Of a stretch of 64,000 bases of DNA, positions 3,867 through 59,266 are shown piece by piece (the stretch's first letter is position 1; every line of letters begins with the position of its first letter). The notes below the pieces were generated by a model. That model was not told the origin of the DNA. It was given only the letters and a program-made list of their open reading frames with translations, and made no database searches. Position numbers and translations under genes: made by a program. The DNA is from Acidobacteriota bacterium (GTDB lineage Bacteria > Acidobacteriota > Vicinamibacteria > Vicinamibacterales > 2-12-FULL-66-21). The stretch lies in assembly GCA_046727175.1 (NCBI GenBank), contig JBKPCD010000132.1:29474-93473 (forward strand), given 5' to 3'.

Positions 3867-4316
3867 TCAGGCGCTCGGTTTTGGGTTCTGCTCGCTGGTC
3901 TTTCCTGCCGCAATCATCGCCTCTGATTCATCCATTCCGAGGTTCGACAAACGGTCGGCTTCCTTGTTCATCTCACGCCGCACGTGCTCGAAGGTGACGT
4001 CGTCGAGCTCCATCACGAGAAGGCGGGCTCGGACGTACAACGGCCGCAGGCCTGGATGCTTGACCTTGTACTCGCCGCGCATCTGTCGGACGAGCAGCTC
4101 TGAATCGGCTCGAATCCGCACTTTCCGGTAACCGTGTTCGACCGCCCAGCGCAGCGCAGCGAGGAGGGCGTTGTACTCCGCGGCGTTGTTCGTCGCGATT
4201 CCAATCCCGCCATGCAGCTCCTCGAGCAGATTGCCGTTCTCATCCTCGATCCGGATGCCGTAGCCGGCCGGACCGGGATTACCGCGCGCGCCGCCGTCGA
4301 TGTACGCGGTGATCAT
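3867..4316 (-). CDS. Ribonuclease H family protein
   Basis: 149 aa. MITAYIDGGARGNPGPAGYG and NNAAEYNALLAAL match the RNase H type 1 fold signature. Confidence 0.8.
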   Translation of the reverse strand: MITAYIDGGARGNPGPAGYGIRIEDENGNLLEELHGGIGIATNNAAEYNALLAALRWAVEHGYRKVRIRADSELLVRQMRGEYKVKHPGLRPLYVRARLLVMELDDVTFEHVRREMNKEADRLSNLGMDESEAMIAAGKTSEQNPKPSA

Positions 4317-4414
4317 GGCGTGCCTGCATGCCCGGTGCTTCGTGCCAAGTGCCTGGTGCCTGTGCCTGGTGCAAAGGTGGTCTTCGCGGTGCCGCGTCGT
4401 TCTCAGCAGAGCGG

Positions 4415-5155
4415 TTATGAGGAGGGCGGCGATGTCGAGCCCTCAGCGGCGGCAGGAACGAAGTACAGGATCCGCGAGCAACTCTCACATTGTATGAGGC
4501 TGTCGTTTCGGCGAACCTCGTTGAAGACCTGGGGGCGCAGCCGCACGTGGCATTGCGTGCAGTGGCCCTCGCGCGCTTCGGAGAGGGCGAAACCCTTGCG
4601 ATGCCGGGCGACGTAATCGAAGAGTGCAATCGCCCGCGGCGAGAGCTTCGCGACGATCGCCGCGCGTGCGTCAGCGAGGCGCTCCGTTTCACTCTCCAGC
4701 TGCACGCGCTCGGCCTCGAGCTGCTGCTTCTCCCGCGCGACTTCGGCTTGTTCGGCCTTGAGCGCCGCCTCGGCCCCTTTCAGCTCGCCGGCCAGAATCT
4801 CGGCCTCCTCCATGCGATCGAGCAGCCGGTCTTCCTGACTGCGAACGCTCTGTTCGGCCGTGGCGATTTCATGCTGCATCGCCTGGTATTCCTTGTTCGT
4901 CTTCACCTCCATCAACTGATCTTTGAACTTGCTGAGGCGCCCCTGGACGAACGCCAGTTCCTTTTCGATTTCGCGCCTCGCCGCCTGGCTCGCGCTCATG
5001 CGTTCCTTGATCACCGACAACGCTGTAGTCCGGTCCGACAGCCGCTTCTCGAGCGCGTCCTGTGCGGCCGGTATGTCGGCGATCCGCCGGCGATTGCGGT
5101 CGACAGAGAGATCGAGGTCCTGGAGCTGGATCAGATGCTGGAGGTCAGAGTGCAT
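4415..5155 (-). CDS. Coiled-coil protein with C-terminal C4 zinc ribbon (COG1579-like)
   Basis: 246 aa of long heptad-rich coiled coil, then CTQCHVRL...CESCSRILY. Pairing of this family with RNase H is known from actinobacteria. Confidence 0.7.
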   Translation of the reverse strand: MHSDLQHLIQLQDLDLSVDRNRRRIADIPAAQDALEKRLSDRTTALSVIKERMSASQAARREIEKELAFVQGRLSKFKDQLMEVKTNKEYQAMQHEIATAEQSVRSQEDRLLDRMEEAEILAGELKGAEAALKAEQAEVAREKQQLEAERVQLESETERLADARAAIVAKLSPRAIALFDYVARHRKGFALSEAREGHCTQCHVRLRPQVFNEVRRNDSLIQCESCSRILYFVPAAAEGSTSPPSS

Positions 5156-52278: not shown

Positions 52279-54428
52279 TGCGCGGAAGTCGTTCGGGGTT
52301 CATTGGTATAGTGCTGGGCGGGACGTTGGCCGCGGCGTGCGCGAGCGCGCCGCCGGCAGCACCGCCGCCGGGCGCGACCGTACCGCTCCAGAAGAAGATG
52401 GCGTGGATGCTGCAACTCGAGGATCAACGCGTCCTCCGTCTTCCGCCACCTCCCCCTCCGGTCGAACCACCCGTCGCCCGGGGACGGCCCCGCGTTGCAC
52501 CGGCGCCGATACCACCTTCGTCGTCGGCCGATCTCACGGTGCTCGTCAAGGATGCCGATTCACGCGTGCGGCGACGCGCCGCGCTCGCGATCGGTCGCGT
52601 GGGCCTTTCCGAAGGCGTGCCGCCCCTCGTTGCAACGCTTGCCGATTCGGACCCCGACGTTCGGGGGATGGCGGCGTTTGGGCTCGGCCTGATTGGCGAT
52701 TCGTCTGCAGAACCGTCGCTCGTTCCGTTGCTCGCGGATCCAGCGCCACTCGTGCGCGGACGCGCCGCCGAGGCGCTCGGGCTCATCGGTGGGAGAGGCG
52801 CCGCCGCCGCAATAGGCCGCCTGGCTGGTGAATACGTGCGCAGCGCGCCCGTGACCGCGATGGAGCCGGATGATATGTCGTGGCCGGCTGCGCCAGAGGC
52901 GGAGGCATTCAAGCTTGCGGTATTCGCGCTCGTGCGGTTGAGTGCCTACGATCCGCTCGCGAGCGCCGTGCTCGACGGCACACGACCGCTCTCGATGTGG
53001 TGGCCGGTCGCGTATGCGCTGCAGCGCGTCGAGGACGCGCGCGCAGCACCCGCGCTGCTGGAGCTCCTGCAGGCGCCCGGAACGTACACGCGCGCGTTCG
53101 CGGCGCGCGGGCTCGGCGCATTGAAGCATGGTCCGGCGGCGAAGCCCCTCGCCGCGCTGCTCGATCCGAAGGCGAAGACGCCGCTCGAGGTGATGGTGGC
53201 AGCCATTCGCGCCGTCGCGCAGTTAGGAGACGGTTCAGCCAACGAGTCTCTTGCGACGTTGGCAGGCGATTCACGAGTTCAACCCAATGTCCGGCTCGAG
53301 GCGGTCAACGCCCTTGCCGTCCTGCACGCGACCGAGGGGCTGCCGATCGTGCAGGACTTGATGACCGACGACTGGCCGACCATGCGCGGGGCGGCGCTGC
53401 GAGCGGTCGCTGCGATCGATCGCGATGACTTCATTACCGTCCTGTCCGGACTCGAACCAGATCGCGACTGGCGTGTCCGTGCGGCGCTGGCCGACGTTCT
53501 TGCGACGCTGCCACCCGACATCGCGCTCGAGCGCGAGCGATCGATGCTCCAGGACGATGACAAGCGGGTGATCGTTGCGGTCCTCGGCGGGCTTGCGAAG
53601 CTCCACGCTCCCGATCTTGCAGCGATTCTGCTGGGACGTCTGAAGGATTCCGACTTCGCAGTCCGTGCGGCTGCGGCGCACCATCTCGGCCAGCTTAAGC
53701 CGGCAAATGCCGCGGAAGCGCTCCGAGAGGCGTATAGGGCAGGGCTGCCGGACGCGGCTTACTCGGCGCGCGCCGCGGCGATCGAGGCGCTCGCGGAGTA
53801 CGGCGCCGCCGAAGCGCGCGAGACGTTGAAGGCCGCGCTCGGCGACAAGGACTGGGCGATTCGGGTCCGTGCCGCTGAGCTCCTCACGAAGCTCGATCCG
53901 TCGACTGACGCCCGCACGATCATCCGGCCGGCGCCGGGTGATCCGCCCGCGCCGTACGATGATTCGCAACTCGCCGCGCCGGAGTTCTCGCCGCACGTGT
54001 TCATCGAGACGGCGAAGGGCACCATTGAAATCGAGCTTGCGGTCCTCGACGCCCCGCAGACCACACTCAATTTCATGACGCTCGTGCGGAAGGGCTTCTT
54101 CAATGGGCTGCAGGTCCCGCGCGTCGTGGTCAATTTCGTCGTCCAGGACGGCGATCCGCGCGGCGACGGTGACGGAGGGCCAGGCTACTCGATCCGCGAT
54201 GAGCTGAATCAGCGGCCGTATCTTCGCGGGACCGTCGGGATGGCGCTCGAGTCGTGGAGGGACACGGGCGGCAGTCAGTTCTTCATCACGCATTCACCAC
54301 AGCCGCATCTCGATGGGCGCTACACGGTTTTCGGCCACGTCATCAACGGCATGGAGGTGGTCGATCGGATTCAGCAGGGCGATGTGATCCAGCGTATCCG
54401 CGTGTGGGATGGAAAGTCGTGGCAGTAA
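52278..54428 (+). CDS. HEAT-repeat protein fused to a C-terminal cyclophilin-type peptidyl-prolyl isomerase
   Basis: 716 aa. Signal/lipoprotein-like N-terminus (GTLAAAC), many D..VR..AA.ALG HEAT-like units, and a C-terminal cyclophilin core FHRV-type region ...FVVQDGDPRGDGDGGPGY...GTVGMA...GSQFFIT....LDGRYTVFGHV. The start overlaps the menC stop (TAATG). Confidence 0.8.
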   Translation: MRGSRSGFIGIVLGGTLAAACASAPPAAPPPGATVPLQKKMAWMLQLEDQRVLRLPPPPPPVEPPVARGRPRVAPAPIPPSSSADLTVLVKDADSRVRRRAALAIGRVGLSEGVPPLVATLADSDPDVRGMAAFGLGLIGDSSAEPSLVPLLADPAPLVRGRAAEALGLIGGRGAAAAIGRLAGEYVRSAPVTAMEPDDMSWPAAPEAEAFKLAVFALVRLSAYDPLASAVLDGTRPLSMWWPVAYALQRVEDARAAPALLELLQAPGTYTRAFAARGLGALKHGPAAKPLAALLDPKAKTPLEVMVAAIRAVAQLGDGSANESLATLAGDSRVQPNVRLEAVNALAVLHATEGLPIVQDLMTDDWPTMRGAALRAVAAIDRDDFITVLSGLEPDRDWRVRAALADVLATLPPDIALERERSMLQDDDKRVIVAVLGGLAKLHAPDLAAILLGRLKDSDFAVRAAAAHHLGQLKPANAAEALREAYRAGLPDAAYSARAAAIEALAEYGAAEARETLKAALGDKDWAIRVRAAELLTKLDPSTDARTIIRPAPGDPPAPYDDSQLAAPEFSPHVFIETAKGTIEIELAVLDAPQTTLNFMTLVRKGFFNGLQVPRVVVNFVVQDGDPRGDGDGGPGYSIRDELNQRPYLRGTVGMALESWRDTGGSQFFITHSPQPHLDGRYTVFGHVINGMEVVDRIQQGDVIQRIRVWDGKSWQ

Positions 54429-54433
54429 AACAC

Positions 54434-54520
54434 AGAAGCTAGAATTCAGAGTGAGCACTCCCGCCGATCGGGATCATTTGGGAGGCTCACGGTCACTCTA
54501 GCTTCTAACTTCTCGCTTCT
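54434..54520. repeat. AGAAGNN-type imperfect palindrome plus three NNCTTCT heptamers
   Basis: agaagctaga (54434-54443) pairs perfectly with tctagcttct (54497-54506), and the inner gagtgagc/gctcac also pairs. Followed by aacttct cgcttct. Confidence 0.7.
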
Positions 54521-54540
54521 GGCAAGCGTCGGGACAAACA

Positions 54541-54568
54541 AAAAGGGGGCGACGGCCGCCCCCTTTTT
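54541..54568. terminator. Bidirectional intrinsic terminator
   Basis: AAAA-GGGGGCG-acggc-CGCCCCC-TTTTT: a 7-bp GC stem flanked by an A run and a T run. It sits between the convergent PPIase gene and micro-ORF 54585..54635. Confidence 0.8.
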
Positions 54569-54584
54569 CAGCGGGTGAAATGGC

Positions 54585-54635
54585 TCAGCGCTTCTTGCCG
54601 CCCTTCTTCTTCCCGCCCTTGGCCTTCTTCGCCAT
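54585..54635 (-). CDS. Micro-ORF encoding 16-aa polycationic peptide MAKKAKGGKKKGGKKR
   Basis: ATG preceded by AAGGGGGGG plus a 9-nt spacer. The TGA is followed 16 nt later by the 54541..54568 terminator. Its paralogue at 54894..54947 differs only by synonymous changes and one codon. Confidence 0.6.
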   Translation of the reverse strand: MAKKAKGGKKKGGKKR

Positions 54636-54843
54636 TACGATTATCCCCCCCTTCACGCGTGGGCTTCGTGCGAGGAGCTCTCACCGCTTTGCGGCGCCGC
54701 TGCCTTCTGGCACGCCGGCCCGCCTTCGTCGGCGCTCTTCGCTTCCTTGCTTACGTCCGCGATCGCGATCGCATCGCGTCCGATCGCGGATTCACTCTCG
54801 CGATCCATCAGAGGGCATCGGGCACGCGAGAGAGTCAGCATCC

Positions 54844-54876
54844 AAAAAAAAGGGGGTGTCAGCTCGCGACACCCCC
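54844..54876 (-). terminator. Intrinsic terminator after micro-ORF 54894..54947
   Basis: On the minus strand: GGGGGTGTC-gcgagct-GACACCCCC followed by TTTTTTTT. Confidence 0.8.
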
Positions 54877-54893
54877 GGACCGGCAGGCGGCTC

Positions 54894-54947
54894 TTAGCGT
54901 TTCTTCCCGCCCTTTTTCTTGCCGCCTTTCGCAGTCTTCTTCGCCAT
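54894..54947 (-). CDS. Micro-ORF encoding 17-aa polycationic peptide MAKKTAKGGKKKGGKKR
   Basis: Canonical AAGGAGG 4 nt before the ATG. It has its own sigma-70-like promoter and its own terminator, and is a paralogue of 54585..54635. Confidence 0.65.
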   Translation of the reverse strand: MAKKTAKGGKKKGGKKR

Positions 54948-55041
54948 TATTCCTCCTTGGAATGTGGCAGCTCAGCTTTGTTACCGGTTACCGAGGGTCA
55001 CCACAGGTGGGCTGAGCGGTCCACCCTCATACAAGATATAG

Positions 55042-55069
55042 ATTATGGATGAGAAAAATCGAGTGTCAA
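55042..55069 (-). promoter_or_regulatory. Sigma-70-type promoter for the micro-ORF unit
   Basis: Minus strand TTGACA (55069-55064), 16-nt spacer, CATAAT (55047-55042). It is located just downstream of the T-rich end of the ddl/TPR operon and predicts a ~90-nt leader. Confidence 0.5.
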
Positions 55070-55202
55070 GCACAAAGTGCGCAAAATGTCAAAAAAAAGA
55101 ACGGCGATCACCGATCCTTTGCATCGCTGAATGCGCGAGTGTGGAGATCCCACGAAGAACCCGACGTGTGAACGATGAACTTTGGACCCTGAACCTCGAA
55201 CC

Positions 55203-56882
55203 CTACTTCGACAGTCGCGCGAGCGCGCGTGAGGCGGCATTGCGCGTCTCTTCGGCGGCGCCGAAGAGCGTCGACGCGACGCGATACCACGCGATCGCCT
55301 GATCGCGTTCCCCGGCGCGCTCGCGCAGCCGTGCGGCTTCGAGATAGGCGGTCGCGAGAATCGGCGGCGGACATTCGCGCGCGCCCTGAATCGACAGCTC
55401 GAACTGTGTCAGCGCTCCTGCATCGTCACGTCGCGCCTGGAGGACCCGTCCGAGACGATAGTGCGCAACCGGATCCTGCGGGTTGAGCGCCACCGAGCGC
55501 TCGAGCGCGGCGCTCGCGGCTGGCAGGTCGTCCTTCTCGAGCCGGCGCCAGCCTTCGAGCGAGAGTCGATACGCGTCCGCCTTGCGCACGTCCGGCCGAT
55601 GGCGGATCCGTTCCGCCGCCTGACCGCGGATGTCGAAGGGATCGTCCGGTGGCGCGCTCGTCGTCGCGCTCCGGTAGGCCGCTGTTGCTGCCGGCCGAGC
55701 ACCCAGGCGGTCGTATGCCTCCCCAAGGCGCAGATACGCCAGACCCAGCGACGAATACGGCGCAGCCGGCCTCGCCGCCGTGATTCCCTGCAGCTGTTCG
55801 ATTGCGTGATCCGTTTGGTGCAGCGCTTCGAGCTGGCGAGCCGATCCGAGACGCGCCTGCACTTCGGCAATGCCGGAGGCGTTCACCCGCTGTTCGCGCG
55901 CCATCGACAGCAGCGCGCGCCACGTATCGAGGCTCCGCATCACATCGTGTTCGTAGGCGTCCTGGATTTCGGCAATCTGCATCAGAAAGAGCGGATTGCC
56001 CGGATAGCGCCGCTGGAGACCGCGCAGCAGCTCGAGCGCGCGATCCGTCTGGCGCTCGTACCAGAGATACACGAGGTGCAGCTGGTAGTCCGCTTCTCCT
56101 TGCAGCAGGCGCCCCTCGTTGCGGGCGCGCAGCATCTGCTCGAGGCCTTCATCGCGATCGCCGCCTGGCAGCAAGAGGAGAAACCGCAGAATCCGCGCGC
56201 CGGCAGGTGCGACGTCGGCATAGTACTTATAGAGGCCGATGCCGAAATAGGCGTCGTCGAGTCCAGGCGCGAGTTCGACGGCTCGTTCGAGAGCGTGCTT
56301 GATCCGCTTGCCGTCGCGGGCTGCGGCGAGCTTGTCATCCCGAAGGACCCGAAACTGCACGCGCGTCGCATACGCGCCTCCGAGATAGAACCAGGCTTCG
56401 GCGTCGTCCGGGTTTCGGCGCGTCCATTCCTCGGTCGAGCGGATTGCGCGTTCGACCGAGGCGAGGAACTCCTCATCGAGCGTTCGGCTGAACGGGTCGA
56501 GCAGGATGCGCCACCACAAGGCGGTCGCGTCGAGCACGTCACACGCCTCGCGCGGCGCCGGACCGCAGGCGCGGCGCAACTCCGCGTCCACTTGATCGAA
56601 TCGGGCGTCGAGGATGAATTCGTAGACGCGCGCAAGCGCGTCTTCGCCGCGCAGATCCGGCGGGTTTTCGACTGGAGAGGCCGCGTGCTCCCTGCCGACA
56701 GGCGGTCTTGTGCGCTGAGCGGCGGAGGCTTCGCGCGCCTCCGATGGATGGACGTGAATCAAGGTGACCGTAATCGCGACGAGCGCCGCCACCAGCTCTC
56801 GACAGCGCCTCGCGGTGGCGCTCCACGCCCCACTGCGCACAGAACGCGCGGCGGGGATCCCCCTACGCCGTTCCACGGTCAT
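55203..56882 (-). CDS. TPR-repeat protein with N-terminal membrane anchor/signal
   Basis: 559 aa. Hydrophobic segment LVAALVAITVTLI, then multiple TPR-like A..Y..A helix pairs. The ATG overlaps the ddl stop (ATGA). Confidence 0.65.
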   Translation of the reverse strand: MTVERRRGIPAARSVRSGAWSATARRCRELVAALVAITVTLIHVHPSEAREASAAQRTRPPVGREHAASPVENPPDLRGEDALARVYEFILDARFDQVDAELRRACGPAPREACDVLDATALWWRILLDPFSRTLDEEFLASVERAIRSTEEWTRRNPDDAEAWFYLGGAYATRVQFRVLRDDKLAAARDGKRIKHALERAVELAPGLDDAYFGIGLYKYYADVAPAGARILRFLLLLPGGDRDEGLEQMLRARNEGRLLQGEADYQLHLVYLWYERQTDRALELLRGLQRRYPGNPLFLMQIAEIQDAYEHDVMRSLDTWRALLSMAREQRVNASGIAEVQARLGSARQLEALHQTDHAIEQLQGITAARPAAPYSSLGLAYLRLGEAYDRLGARPAATAAYRSATTSAPPDDPFDIRGQAAERIRHRPDVRKADAYRLSLEGWRRLEKDDLPAASAALERSVALNPQDPVAHYRLGRVLQARRDDAGALTQFELSIQGARECPPPILATAYLEAARLRERAGERDQAIAWYRVASTLFGAAEETRNAASRALARLSK

Positions 56883-58039
56883 GTCACGCTGGTGCGCAAC
56901 TGCTGCTTTTCGGCATGCCGCTCGATCGCGAGCGCGATGAGCCGGTCAAGCAGCGTCGGATAGTCGACGCCCGAAGCGGCCCACATCTTCGAGTACATGC
57001 TGATCGTCGTGAAGCCGGGGATCGTGTTCACTTCGTTGACGTAGATGGCTCCGGTGCCGCGCGCGATGAGGAAGTCCACGCGCGCCATGCCGGCGCAATC
57101 GATCGCCTGGAACGCCTCGATTGACAACCGGCGGATCTCGTCAGCGCTACCAGGCGCGAGATCCGCGGGAATGATCACCTTCGAATCCGCGTCGATGTAC
57201 TTTGCTTCGTAATCGTAGAACTCGCGAGAGGGGACGACCTCTCCAGGAACGGACGCTGCCGGTTCGTCGTTGCCGAGGACCGCGCATTCGATCTCTCGCG
57301 CATCCGGCACAGCCGCTTCGACGACGATCTTGCGATCGAATGCGCCGGCGAGATCCATTGCCATCGAAAGCGACGCCTCGTCCTTCGCTTTAGAAATGCC
57401 GACGCTCGATCCGAGATTCGCCGGCTTGACGAACATCGGAAAGCCGAGCGCGCCCGCGAGATCGGCGAGAACAGCCGGACGCCGCCGCTCCCATTGATGG
57501 CGAAGCACCACACGATACGGACAGACCGGCAGGCCCTGCTGGGCAAAGACGACCTTCATCAATGCCTTGTCCATCCCGACCGCAGATGCGAGCACGCCGG
57601 CGCCGACGTACGGCACGTTGGCGAGCTCGAGCAGTCCCTGGATCGTGCCGTCCTCGCCGTAAGGACCGTGCAGCACGGGAAAGATCACGTCGACGTTAAG
57701 GCCCGTAACGATCGCCTGGCCGGTGTCCTTGCTGGTCCCGATGTGTCGATCGATCGCGAGGATGGTCTCCTGGCTTGGCCGCGCGACGAGGTGAACTTCA
57801 CGTCCCTCACGCGTCGGTCGTGCCGCGTCCAACCGTGCTTGATCGATCACCTCCGCCGCTGACACTGCGGTCGGCGGCTTATCGGCGATCGCCCACCGCC
57901 CCTCCTTGTCGATCCGGATCGGGATCGGCTCGTATCGCCCGCGATTCAGGTTCGCGAATACCGCGGCAGCCGAGGCGAGCGACACTTCGTGCTCACCCGA
58001 ACGGCCGCCGTACAGCACACCGACTCGAAGGCGCTTCAC
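56879..58039 (-). CDS. ddl: D-alanine--D-alanine ligase
   Basis: Start set to GTG 58039 (VKRLRVGVLYGGRSGEHEVSL). ATP-grasp motifs FPVLHGPYGEDGT, FVKPANLGSSVGI and EVNTIPGFT. The upstream 145 codons of the track ORF have no Ddl similarity. Confidence 0.9.
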   Translation of the reverse strand: MKRLRVGVLYGGRSGEHEVSLASAAAVFANLNRGRYEPIPIRIDKEGRWAIADKPPTAVSAAEVIDQARLDAARPTREGREVHLVARPSQETILAIDRHIGTSKDTGQAIVTGLNVDVIFPVLHGPYGEDGTIQGLLELANVPYVGAGVLASAVGMDKALMKVVFAQQGLPVCPYRVVLRHQWERRRPAVLADLAGALGFPMFVKPANLGSSVGISKAKDEASLSMAMDLAGAFDRKIVVEAAVPDAREIECAVLGNDEPAASVPGEVVPSREFYDYEAKYIDADSKVIIPADLAPGSADEIRRLSIEAFQAIDCAGMARVDFLIARGTGAIYVNEVNTIPGFTTISMYSKMWAASGVDYPTLLDRLIALAIERHAEKQQLRTSVT

Positions 58040-58075
58040 GAAAGAAGGATACAGGAGTCGGGAGGGAGGAGGTAG

Positions 58076-59266
<1,191 letters not shown>

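Follow-up and report, generated by a model that had tools for sequence, protein, structure and literature searches.

A conserved pair of micro-genes for a short lysine- and glycine-rich polycation at a fixed locus in Vicinamibacterales

The DNA analysed here, referred to as the window, is a stretch of 64,000 nucleotides (nt) from contig JBKPCD010000132.1 of a bacterium of the Acidobacteriota order Vicinamibacterales (assembly GCA_046727175.1). Its minus strand carries two micro-open reading frames (micro-ORFs), which we call micro-genes or copies a and b. Micro-gene a (ORF-a, 54947..54894, minus strand) encodes MAKKTAKGGKKKGGKKR, followed by a TAA stop and comprising 17 amino acids (aa), while micro-gene b (ORF-b, 54635..54585, minus strand) encodes MAKKAKGGKKKGGKKR, followed by a TGA stop and comprising 16 aa. 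Both positions and the near identity of the peptides, reported in an initial annotation of the window, are exact when the minus strand of 54300-55300 is read and translated; the net charge, given there as about +10, is +9 for each peptide, from eight Lys and one Arg. The two are the sole Lys-rich micro-ORFs within the 64 kb. A codon-by-codon alignment of ORF-a and ORF-b reproduces the pattern first reported, with six synonymous and no non-synonymous differences, one extra Thr codon and different stops. Only ~20% of the single-base changes possible in these codons leave the residue unchanged (29 of 144, own count), so six out of six would arise by chance with a probability of ~6e-5. The 60-nt flanks on each side are only 30-37% identical between the copies and hence unrelated, and the direct repeat that joins the copies is limited to the coding part (repeat finder, families D1 and D4). 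The ORF-a/ORF-b pair is well beyond chance.

To follow the micro-genes across genomes, DNA was searched, since the peptides are too short for protein searches. The scan used the back-translated core KGGKKKGGKK alone, with one genome per prokaryotic species, and yielded at least 119 matching stretches; chance alone would give ~0.01 in a collection of 596 Gb (own calculation: 2^-46 per position, 1.2e12 positions, both strands). In the matches from metagenome-assembled genomes (MAGs) of Vicinamibacterales ('gp6'), several features that the pattern did not specify are always present: an ATG, an Ala-Lys-Lys start (ATG-GCN-AAR-AAR), a terminal Arg and an immediate stop. A 'GG' footprint of a Shine-Dalgarno sequence (SD) lies in frame directly upstream in the same matches. 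In other phyla, the core motif sits mostly inside large proteins. A looser finder recovered at least 125 micro-ORFs and at least 46 loci with a pair. Altogether, there are at least 130 micro-ORFs (about 88 Vicinamibacterales loci), encoding 17 peptides in eight length classes of 14-22 aa, all in frame; among the matches listed, at least 57 are orthologues of copy a and at least 72 of copy b.

Variation within this collection follows the reading frame. In the 17-aa class (59 distinct DNA sequences), minor alleles account for a fraction of 0.03 at first, 0.01 at second and 0.22 at third codon positions, and residue 5 (T/A/S/M) is the sole variable residue. Ala2, Ala6 and Arg17, which lie outside the search pattern, are each encoded by three to four synonymous codons. 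For copy b, identity is 0.83 in the coding part versus 0.68 in the upstream and 0.67 in the downstream flank. Gene order is shared across the loci: on one side of the micro-ORFs lies ddl, in most cases followed by a gene for a TPR protein, and on the other a convergent HEAT-repeat/cyclophilin gene, with an enolase-superfamily enzyme as a further neighbour, and the neighbouring proteins are 45-80% identical across loci. A test free of the bias of the search pattern gave the same picture. Metagenome contigs were retrieved by the HEAT-cyclophilin protein alone, giving nine orthologous loci at 53-99% identity, and the micro-ORF or micro-ORFs are present in nine out of nine, on the opposite strand and with the same SD types. 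In these loci, the b type lies 64-160 nt and the a type 300-470 nt past the HEAT-cyclophilin stop, and they include new variants that the search pattern could not have reached (MAKKTAKKGGAKKGGKKR, MAKKTAKKAAKKGGAKKGGKKR, MAKKTAKSGAKKTAKGGKKR, MAKKTASKGGAKKKGAKKR and MAKKAKGGKKKAGKKR).

These observations bear out the purifying selection on the peptide that the initial annotation had proposed from two copies: the frame is intact in about 88 loci, variation falls on third positions, and all nine neighbour-retrieved loci carry a micro-ORF. Scoring of synonymous against non-synonymous change among the homologues reveals no non-synonymous drift, and a frameshift in a single MAG only (L089 in our numbering of matched loci, discussed below). 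Conservation respects the reading frame, which is not the pattern of a conserved structured small RNA (sRNA). Conservation covers the ORF itself, its MAKK start and G/A-KKR end, a composition of Lys, Gly and Ala, and the charge, but not the exact order of the modules in between. That ORF-a and ORF-b are real genes, with a product under purifying selection and fixed synteny across the lineage, is very well supported by this comparison of sequences.

Copies a and b differ consistently from each other. They possess distinct SDs in every genome and carry a synonymous signature at five residues: Ala6 is GCG/GCA in copy a and GCC/GCT in copy b, Gly9 is GGC/GGA and GGG, Lys11 is AAA and mostly AAG, Gly14 is GGA/GGG and GGC, and Arg17 is CGC and CGG, respectively. 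The copies differ from each other by 5.8 synonymous changes within a genome and by 5.9 between genomes, whereas orthologues differ by only 2.3 (copy a) and 3.2 (copy b). Since the divergence between a and b is equal within and between genomes, and orthologues are closer, the duplication is old, and recent gene conversion is not evident; as an explanation of the a/b identity, it is unsupported at synonymous sites. Going by these distances, the duplication would predate the split of the sampled two-copy Vicinamibacterales lineages.

The two copies nonetheless give the same product in most cases. The a and b peptides are identical in 29 of 45 distinct pairs, compared with a mean of 8.6 and a maximum of 17 when pairs are shuffled, a shuffle that ignores phylogeny and so overstates independence. 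In the clade with 14-aa peptides, parallel three-codon deletions are found in both copies. Such parallel changes reflect either selection for identical products or short-patch conversion, which is possible around codons 5-6. Approximately 20 loci among those listed carry a b-type copy only and no TPR gene. In a distant single-copy lineage (L125, also L124 and L126), a promoter and leader box 1 of the a type, described below, are joined to a b-type SD. This arrangement suggests that the ancestral gene carried both an a-type promoter with box 1 and a b-type SD before it was duplicated.

In copy a, promoter, conserved leader, micro-ORF and terminator together form a compact unit of ~195 nt. Its promoter (55069..55042, minus strand) consists of a -35 hexamer TTGACA (55069..55064), a 16-nt spacer and a -10 hexamer CATAAT (55047..55042). 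It matches the consensus at 11 of 12 positions and is the sole promoter-like match in the region, where the promoter scan would be expected to give 0.2. Both hexamers are conserved in 50 non-redundant Vicinamibacterales loci, as is the T-rich stretch directly upstream, to ~55100. With transcription inferred to start ~7 nt past the -10 box, the 5' leader comprises ~88 nt (54948..55035, minus strand). Promoter and leader are almost invariant across the 50 loci. Two segments stand out as nearly invariant, namely box 1 (55044..55001, minus strand), which runs from the inferred transcription start through ...UAUGAGGGUGGnnnGCUCAGCCCACCUGU, and box 2 (54977..54966, minus strand), which reads AAGCUGAGCUGCCA (AGCUGAGCUGCCA); they are separated by ~25 variable nt. 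Box 2 is followed by a mini-hairpin that contains the SD (UUCC-AAGGA-GGAA). The SD itself (54950..54958, minus strand; AAGGAGGAA) lies 2 nt 5' of the ATG, its AAGGAGG core ending 4 nt before it. It is present in every copy-a orthologue, always as ...UUCCAAGGAGGAAnn-AUG, and is invariant in the 50-sequence alignment. In all 57 occurrences of box 1, a micro-ORF follows.

Downstream of ORF-a, an intrinsic terminator (54876..54844, minus strand) is formed by a 10-bp GC-rich stem (54876..54852) with a 5-nt loop and a run of eight U. It is found in nearly all copy-a loci, with a folding free energy of approximately -20 to -25 and T5-T9, and its stem shows compensatory changes (alignment pairs 193-199 with 217-223). 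Counted over both types, intrinsic terminators were found for 93 of 118 micro-ORF copies. In the window, they start 17 nt (copy a) and ~16 nt (copy b) past the stop, and in other loci ~20-45 nt past it.

The structure of the copy-a leader was examined by comparative folding. RNAalifold supports only two elements in the copy-a alignment, the terminator and a 6-bp GGGUGG/CCACCY hairpin in the leader, which shows G-U to G-C changes and one double compensatory change. The minimum-free-energy fold favours a pairing of an invariant GCUCAGC with GCUGAGC, either long-range or as a pseudoknot; as these segments never vary, covariation cannot test the pairing. The fold z-score is -1.5 for the leader and -2.3 for the whole copy-a transcript. 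The variable linker in the centre of the leader shows no structure above shuffled sequences (mean z -0.19), which rules out a hairpin there. The leader also contains a candidate upstream ORF (uORF; 54998..55030, minus strand; MRVDRSAHLW*, 10 codons) without an SD. In 28 distinct DNA variants, its start and approximate stop are kept, mostly at 9-10 codons with four longer forms, and its residues change frequently (D/G/V/A/E, R/G/C, A/D, L/P). Because the residues change freely and an SD is missing, the uORF was rejected as a coding gene. In one locus (L030), it reads in frame into the micro-ORF. Overall, the conservation of the leader makes it a candidate regulatory element, one that the initial annotation had overlooked, and a dual function of copy a, at the level of both RNA and peptide, is possible.

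Copy b is framed by different signals. An SD-like sequence (54645..54653, minus strand; AAGGGGGGG) lies 9 nt 5' of its ATG. A b-type SD with a run of G (most commonly GAAGGGGGGGAU) is present in 72 of 72 b-type orthologues, as GGGGGG or GGGAGGG, with a few variable bases between it and the AUG. In the GC-rich leader of copy b, little is conserved beyond a small candidate hairpin (54701..54712, minus strand; UGCC-AGAA-GGCA). Elsewhere, hairpins of the form (U/G)GCC-N4-GGC(A/C) lie ~65-90 nt 5' of copy b, with U-A, C-G or G-C as the outer pair, though the loose regular expression used makes this a weak observation. A sigma-54-like reading of the GC-rich block 5' of copy b was rejected on spacing by manual inspection; the block looks instead like a small hairpin, again a weak observation.

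Copy b shares a bidirectional terminator (54537..54568, both strands) with the convergent HEAT-cyclophilin gene, which ends at 54428. Its 12-nt arms (54540-54551 and 54557-54568) are perfect, enclose a 5-nt loop and are flanked by A5 and T5, with a folding free energy of -16.1. Thus, the copy-a signals listed in the initial annotation (AAGGAGG, TTGACA-N16-CATAAT and a GC stem with U8) and its bidirectional ORF-b terminator are all in place. Its description of the two ORFs as independently signalled is borne out by their separate SDs and terminators, but not at the level of a promoter for ORF-b. Between the HEAT-cyclophilin stop and the shared terminator, an AT-rich inverted repeat of 21 nt (54434-54513) has arms 38 nt apart that are 81% complementary. 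On the far side of the pair, the ddl ORF (56879-58474, minus strand) is listed as 531 aa, with D-Ala-D-Ala ligase domains from residue 150 onwards; its true start probably lies further downstream, or else the protein bears an unusual N-terminal extension.

In agreement with the earlier statement that the peptides belong to no recognised family, database searches gave no match. Pfam and NCBIfam returned nothing at E<=10 for a 23-aa extended form of ORF-b and a concatenated form, with low sensitivity for such short, biased sequences; PHROGs gave no match, and chains of the PDB gave no sequence match at E<=10, again with low sensitivity for 17 aa. In Rfam, only a tRNA elsewhere in the window passes, and the best local hit, BjrC68, reaches 21 bits against a gathering score of 39 and overlaps the terminator. 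Nor are the peptides described in the literature, as searched by the motif string and for cryo-electron microscopy (cryo-EM) of Acidobacteria ribosomes, small proteins of Vicinamibacter and small ORFs rich in lysine. A reading as a type I toxin or membrane peptide, already considered unlikely from the window, is rejected, as all 17 peptide variants lack a hydrophobic segment: besides Ala, they contain no hydrophobic residue other than the initiating Met and, in one variant (MAKKMAKGG...), a second, internal Met.

Similar Lys/Gly micro-ORFs occur outside Vicinamibacterales. In Terriglobales and Candidatus Angelobacter (L004, L047, L065, L018, L100 and L108), stand-alone micro-ORFs encode MATKKKGGKKKGGKKK and MATKKGGKKKGGKKKH, and one in Paceibacterota (L043) encodes MASKKKGGKKKGGKK. 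Both the Terriglobales and the Paceibacterota micro-ORFs are preceded by an SD of their own and followed by a strong intrinsic terminator, and variation among the Terriglobales loci is exclusively synonymous. Further stand-alone examples are found in Vulcanimicrobiota (L099) and Bacteroidota (L075); all of these micro-ORFs lie in genomic contexts that differ from that of the window pair. Gene contexts in these out-groups, Terriglobales included, offer no functional clue; the micro-ORFs may represent a wider superfamily or convergence.

A second group comes from viruses. On viral contigs (IMG/VR, L149-L243), 94 of 96 motif matches form the C-terminal end of ORFs of 13-58 aa that lack annotation, for example MPGYGHKGGMKKGGKKKGGKKK and MALNRASFGKLMKPRNKKEIKVKKGGKKKGGKKKGY, with endings of the form KGGKKKGGKK(K)(GY). 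These ORFs lie less than 2 kb from, and on the same strand as, genes for terminase, portal or other head-module proteins in 68 of 95 loci, and match no PHROG family. Their position suggests a role in DNA packaging. A reading as homologues of Microviridae protein J is wrong, as the contigs are fragments of tailed phages. The phage micro-ORFs have the same Lys/Gly tail as the micro-peptides, but their N-termini differ (MPGYGHKGG..., MALNRASFGKL...) and they sit beside terminase, portal or capsid genes; any homology is putative. For the window locus itself, a phage or mobile-element packaging peptide was rejected, given its place between housekeeping genes, its conserved chromosomal synteny and the different N-termini.

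The same tract also terminates larger proteins. In three Clostridia MAGs (L055, L066 and L082), YidC-family insertases end in ...KKGGKKKGGKKK(K), identical to the core of the micro-peptide; Pfam 60KD_IMP is confirmed for L055, and by sequence, L066 and L082 are close homologues. The literature reportedly discusses YidC tails of positive charge as elements that bind the ribosome (for example PMC5186731). The clostridial tail, ending ...KKGGKKKGGKKKK, is thus the same tract as in the micro-peptide, but tethered to a membrane protein instead of free, and the likeness may reflect convergent low complexity. In Gemmatimonadota, Lys/Ala-repeat proteins of histone H1-like appearance (AKKA repeats) end with KGGKKKGGKK. 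Lys/Ala-rich, histone H1-like tails are known from bacterial nucleoid proteins, for example the C-terminus of HupB, Hc1 and AlgP. Like the micro-peptides, these tails are dominated by Lys and poor in Arg, with Ala/Gly spacers and modules that expand and contract (compare MAKKTAKKAAKKGGAKKGGKKR), but they are domains of proteins of ~100-200 aa, whereas here the tract is the whole product. Two further occurrences concern other proteins. Archaea of the Poseidoniales/Thermoplasmatota (L002, L044, L064, L111 and L117) have frames of ~750-825 codons with a conserved internal ...HGVKGGKKKGGKKMKEE..., and 72-aa DUF6496 proteins of Pyrinomonadaceae and an unclassified MAG (L005 and L068) carry the same Lys/Gly tract as C-terminal tail.

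We favour, with confidence a little above even, the view that both micro-genes are translated and make a polycation that binds nucleic acids electrostatically. The old duplication would have left two micro-genes that both give essentially the same peptide of 14-22 residues, and lineages with copy b only exist. Made up of Lys, Gly and Ala almost throughout, ending in a single Arg and carrying a net charge of about +9, the peptide would be flexible and disordered, and, as it has no hydrophobic or signal segment, it would stay in the cytoplasm. With a charge of +9, no hydrophobic residues besides Ala and no export signal, little is possible for it except binding to polyanions. Copy a would provide high, regulated expression through its near-consensus promoter, perfect SD, strong terminator and invariant leader, the latter being the prime candidate for feedback or condition-dependent control, while copy b would supply the same product from a different, unconserved control region. 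The peptide would act as a gene-encoded analogue of a polyamine or of a histone H1-type tail. Its main partner would most likely be the ribosome or RNA by mass action, since ribosomal RNA (rRNA) is the most abundant polyanion of the cell, with the nucleoid second. By analogy, the clostridial YidC tails, the Gemmatimonadota H1-like proteins and the phage head-module micro-ORFs lend some support to polyanion binding. Translation, abundance, the binding target and regulation by the leader are here what we infer from the DNA.

Several observations weigh against a translated polycation that binds nucleic acids. The neighbouring genes (Ddl, the TPR protein, the HEAT-cyclophilin fusion and the enolase-superfamily enzyme) point to neither translation nor the nucleoid. 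Length and order of the Lys/Gly/Ala modules drift, which fits non-specific charge better than a defined rRNA pocket. That the products of the paralogues are usually identical points in the opposite direction, to details of the sequence being important. The promoter scan found no sigma-70-like site upstream of copy b. In copy a, the leader is about as conserved as the coding part (identity 0.84 and 0.85), so part of the copy-a conservation could be at the RNA level. Finally, in the MAG L089, a 1-nt insertion interrupts both copies (4120-4580) near codons 5-6, although further downstream the old frame still gives KGGKKKGGKKR. By its name, this MAG presumably derives from a long-read assembly; the insertions could be sequencing errors or very recent decay.

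The main rival to such a charge-neutralising peptide, which we consider rather unlikely, is a site-specific ribosomal micro-protein, present in stoichiometric amounts in a defined rRNA pocket like bS22/eL41, bL37 or Thx, with the leader as an autoregulatory mimic of the binding site. Thx of Thermus is a free-standing, basic and lineage-restricted ribosomal peptide, ~24-27 aa long as is bL37, and bS22, bL37, eL41 and Thx are Arg-rich with fixed sequences. As a precedent for the rival, very basic, unannotated ribosomal proteins of ~24-33 aa have repeatedly been found only by cryo-EM, and bS22 (~30 aa, 61% Lys/Arg) and eL41 (24 aa) are routinely missed by annotation (PMC10618245). The bS22 transcript is reported to be highly abundant in Borrelia (PMC10618245). 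All of bS22, bL37 and eL41 are helical: the bS22 type forms a bent helix of ~30 aa in a fixed pocket of 16S h2/h27/h44/h45 and 23S H68, and bL37, a lineage-restricted protein of mycobacteria and Cutibacterium, forms a helix near the peptidyl-transferase centre (PMC10618245).

Compared to bS22, eL41 and mS38, the micro-peptides are likewise tiny, very basic and overlooked by annotation, but they are shorter (14-22 aa), contain one Arg and GG pairs, and vary in length. To bL37 and Thx, there is no sequence resemblance beyond charge, and the composition differs, with one Arg and four Gly in the micro-peptide. Neither group offers a profile or PDB match, and no ribosomal-protein model or solved ribosome chain matches, at a sensitivity that is low for 17 aa. 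From the sequence, the GG pairs make a continuous helix unlikely, and no helix-favouring pattern is seen. Lengths of 14-22 aa and shuffled modules would be unusual for a buried ribosomal protein, and no translation gene lies near the locus. In favour of a ribosomal protein, the strong expression signals are combined with a conserved leader, of the kind that autoregulated ribosomal-protein operons carry, yet its structure is weakly supported. The micro-genes are conserved across the lineage at one locus, strictly in most genomes, and the paralogues have been kept encoding the same peptide, which suggests that its sequence matters. Small ribosomal proteins reportedly include paralogue pairs under different regulation (PMC6094098), which would be a precedent for copies a and b. 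Taken together, the likeness to Thx, bS22 and bL37 proposed in the initial annotation holds only as an analogy, and is countered by the restriction to Lys and Gly, the variable length, a probably non-helical peptide and the lack of any match.

A function mainly at the RNA level appears improbable. The ~195-nt copy-a transcript would then be a regulatory or dual-function sRNA, whose 5' boxes pair with RNA or bind a protein, with the ORF playing a secondary part or being translated solely in the course of regulation. The layout of copy a fits a dual-function sRNA, in that it combines a conserved non-coding segment with a strong promoter of its own and a Rho-independent terminator that includes a U-tract; copy b, without a conserved leader, does not share it. 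The leader is near-invariant, from the start to box 1 and in box 2, where neighbouring proteins are 50-70% identical, and synonymous sites are tighter in copy a than in copy b (2.3 versus 3.2 differences), with Lys11 encoded by AAA in 23 of 23 copy-a sequences. The fold z-score of -2.3 for the whole transcript points in the same direction. Against this, copy b encodes the same peptide amid unrelated and poorly conserved flanks, so that selection acts on the peptide independently of the copy-a RNA. Coding variation is three-base periodic, all insertions and deletions are multiples of three, and b-only lineages do without the conserved a-type leader. Rfam offers no match, there is hardly any covariation, with one double change in the leader, and the linker is without structure. 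An RNA role is nevertheless compatible with the electrostatic peptide as an extra layer. The initial claim of selection on the peptide is supported, and the conserved copy-a promoter and leader add an element at the RNA or DNA level.

Still less probable, to the point of being very doubtful, is a leader peptide of transcription attenuation, in which ribosomes stalling at the eight Lys codons (or the four for Gly) would report on tRNA charging and thereby determine how often the terminator is read through. The micro-ORFs resemble hisL, pheL and thrL, the known leader peptides with a run of one amino acid, in that they have 14-17 codons with a single-residue run (~14-21 codons when the attenuators are compared) and an intrinsic terminator ~20-45 nt after each stop. 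RNAalifold also pairs a coding GGCGG with CCGCC just before the copy-a terminator, but its changes are one-sided (wobble) only, and no antiterminator was identified. The gene order largely refutes this explanation: downstream of copy a lies only copy b, after copy b follows the convergent gene in every locus, and no locus has a same-strand operon downstream. The adjacent genes include none for lysine or glycine biosynthesis or for a tRNA synthetase, and conserved termini and identical products of the paralogues would be unexpected for a pure stalling sensor. That the micro-ORFs are not genes at all, but short ORFs paired by chance within a purine-rich repeat of low complexity, or else a repeat element, as their composition, a size far below gene-caller thresholds and the lack of database entries might suggest, has a negligible probability and is refuted by all of the comparative evidence, with ~0.01 matches expected against at least 119 found.

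A tiny, basic, nucleic-acid-binding micro-protein missed by annotation is a known kind of element; the variant described here, shorter, restricted to Lys and Gly, duplicated, lineage-wide and bearing a dedicated invariant leader, is new. More tentatively, and with odds we place below even, we propose that the Vicinamibacterales micro-genes belong to a hidden, widespread class of oligolysine 'macro-polyamines' of 13-22 aa, present in Vicinamibacterales, Terriglobales, probably bacteria of the candidate phyla radiation, and tailed-phage head modules. In ribosomes, nucleoids or capsids, such peptides would offset the charge of nucleic acids; in Vicinamibacterales, a dedicated leader sensing the peptide or the balance of polyanions and polycations would set their dosage. 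If this holds, they would be among the smallest conserved free-standing bacterial proteins, and the Lys/Gly micro-ORFs of phage packaging modules suggest that charge-neutralising micro-peptides may be a general, overlooked solution.

For the lineage itself, genes of 14-22 codons are invisible to gene callers, and the micro-genes show that such a gene can belong to the conserved core across a major group of soil bacteria. They have been maintained at one place, in two differently controlled copies, while the neighbouring proteins diverged to ~50% identity, and the conserved leader provides a defined regulatory element to dissect. Should the peptide prove to be a component of the ribosome or nucleoid, it would be a new constituent, made of Lys and Gly only, apparently unstructured and shorter than Thx, bL37 and bS22, and it would constitute a lineage-specific trait of the Vicinamibacteria, soil bacteria that are abundant but barely studied.

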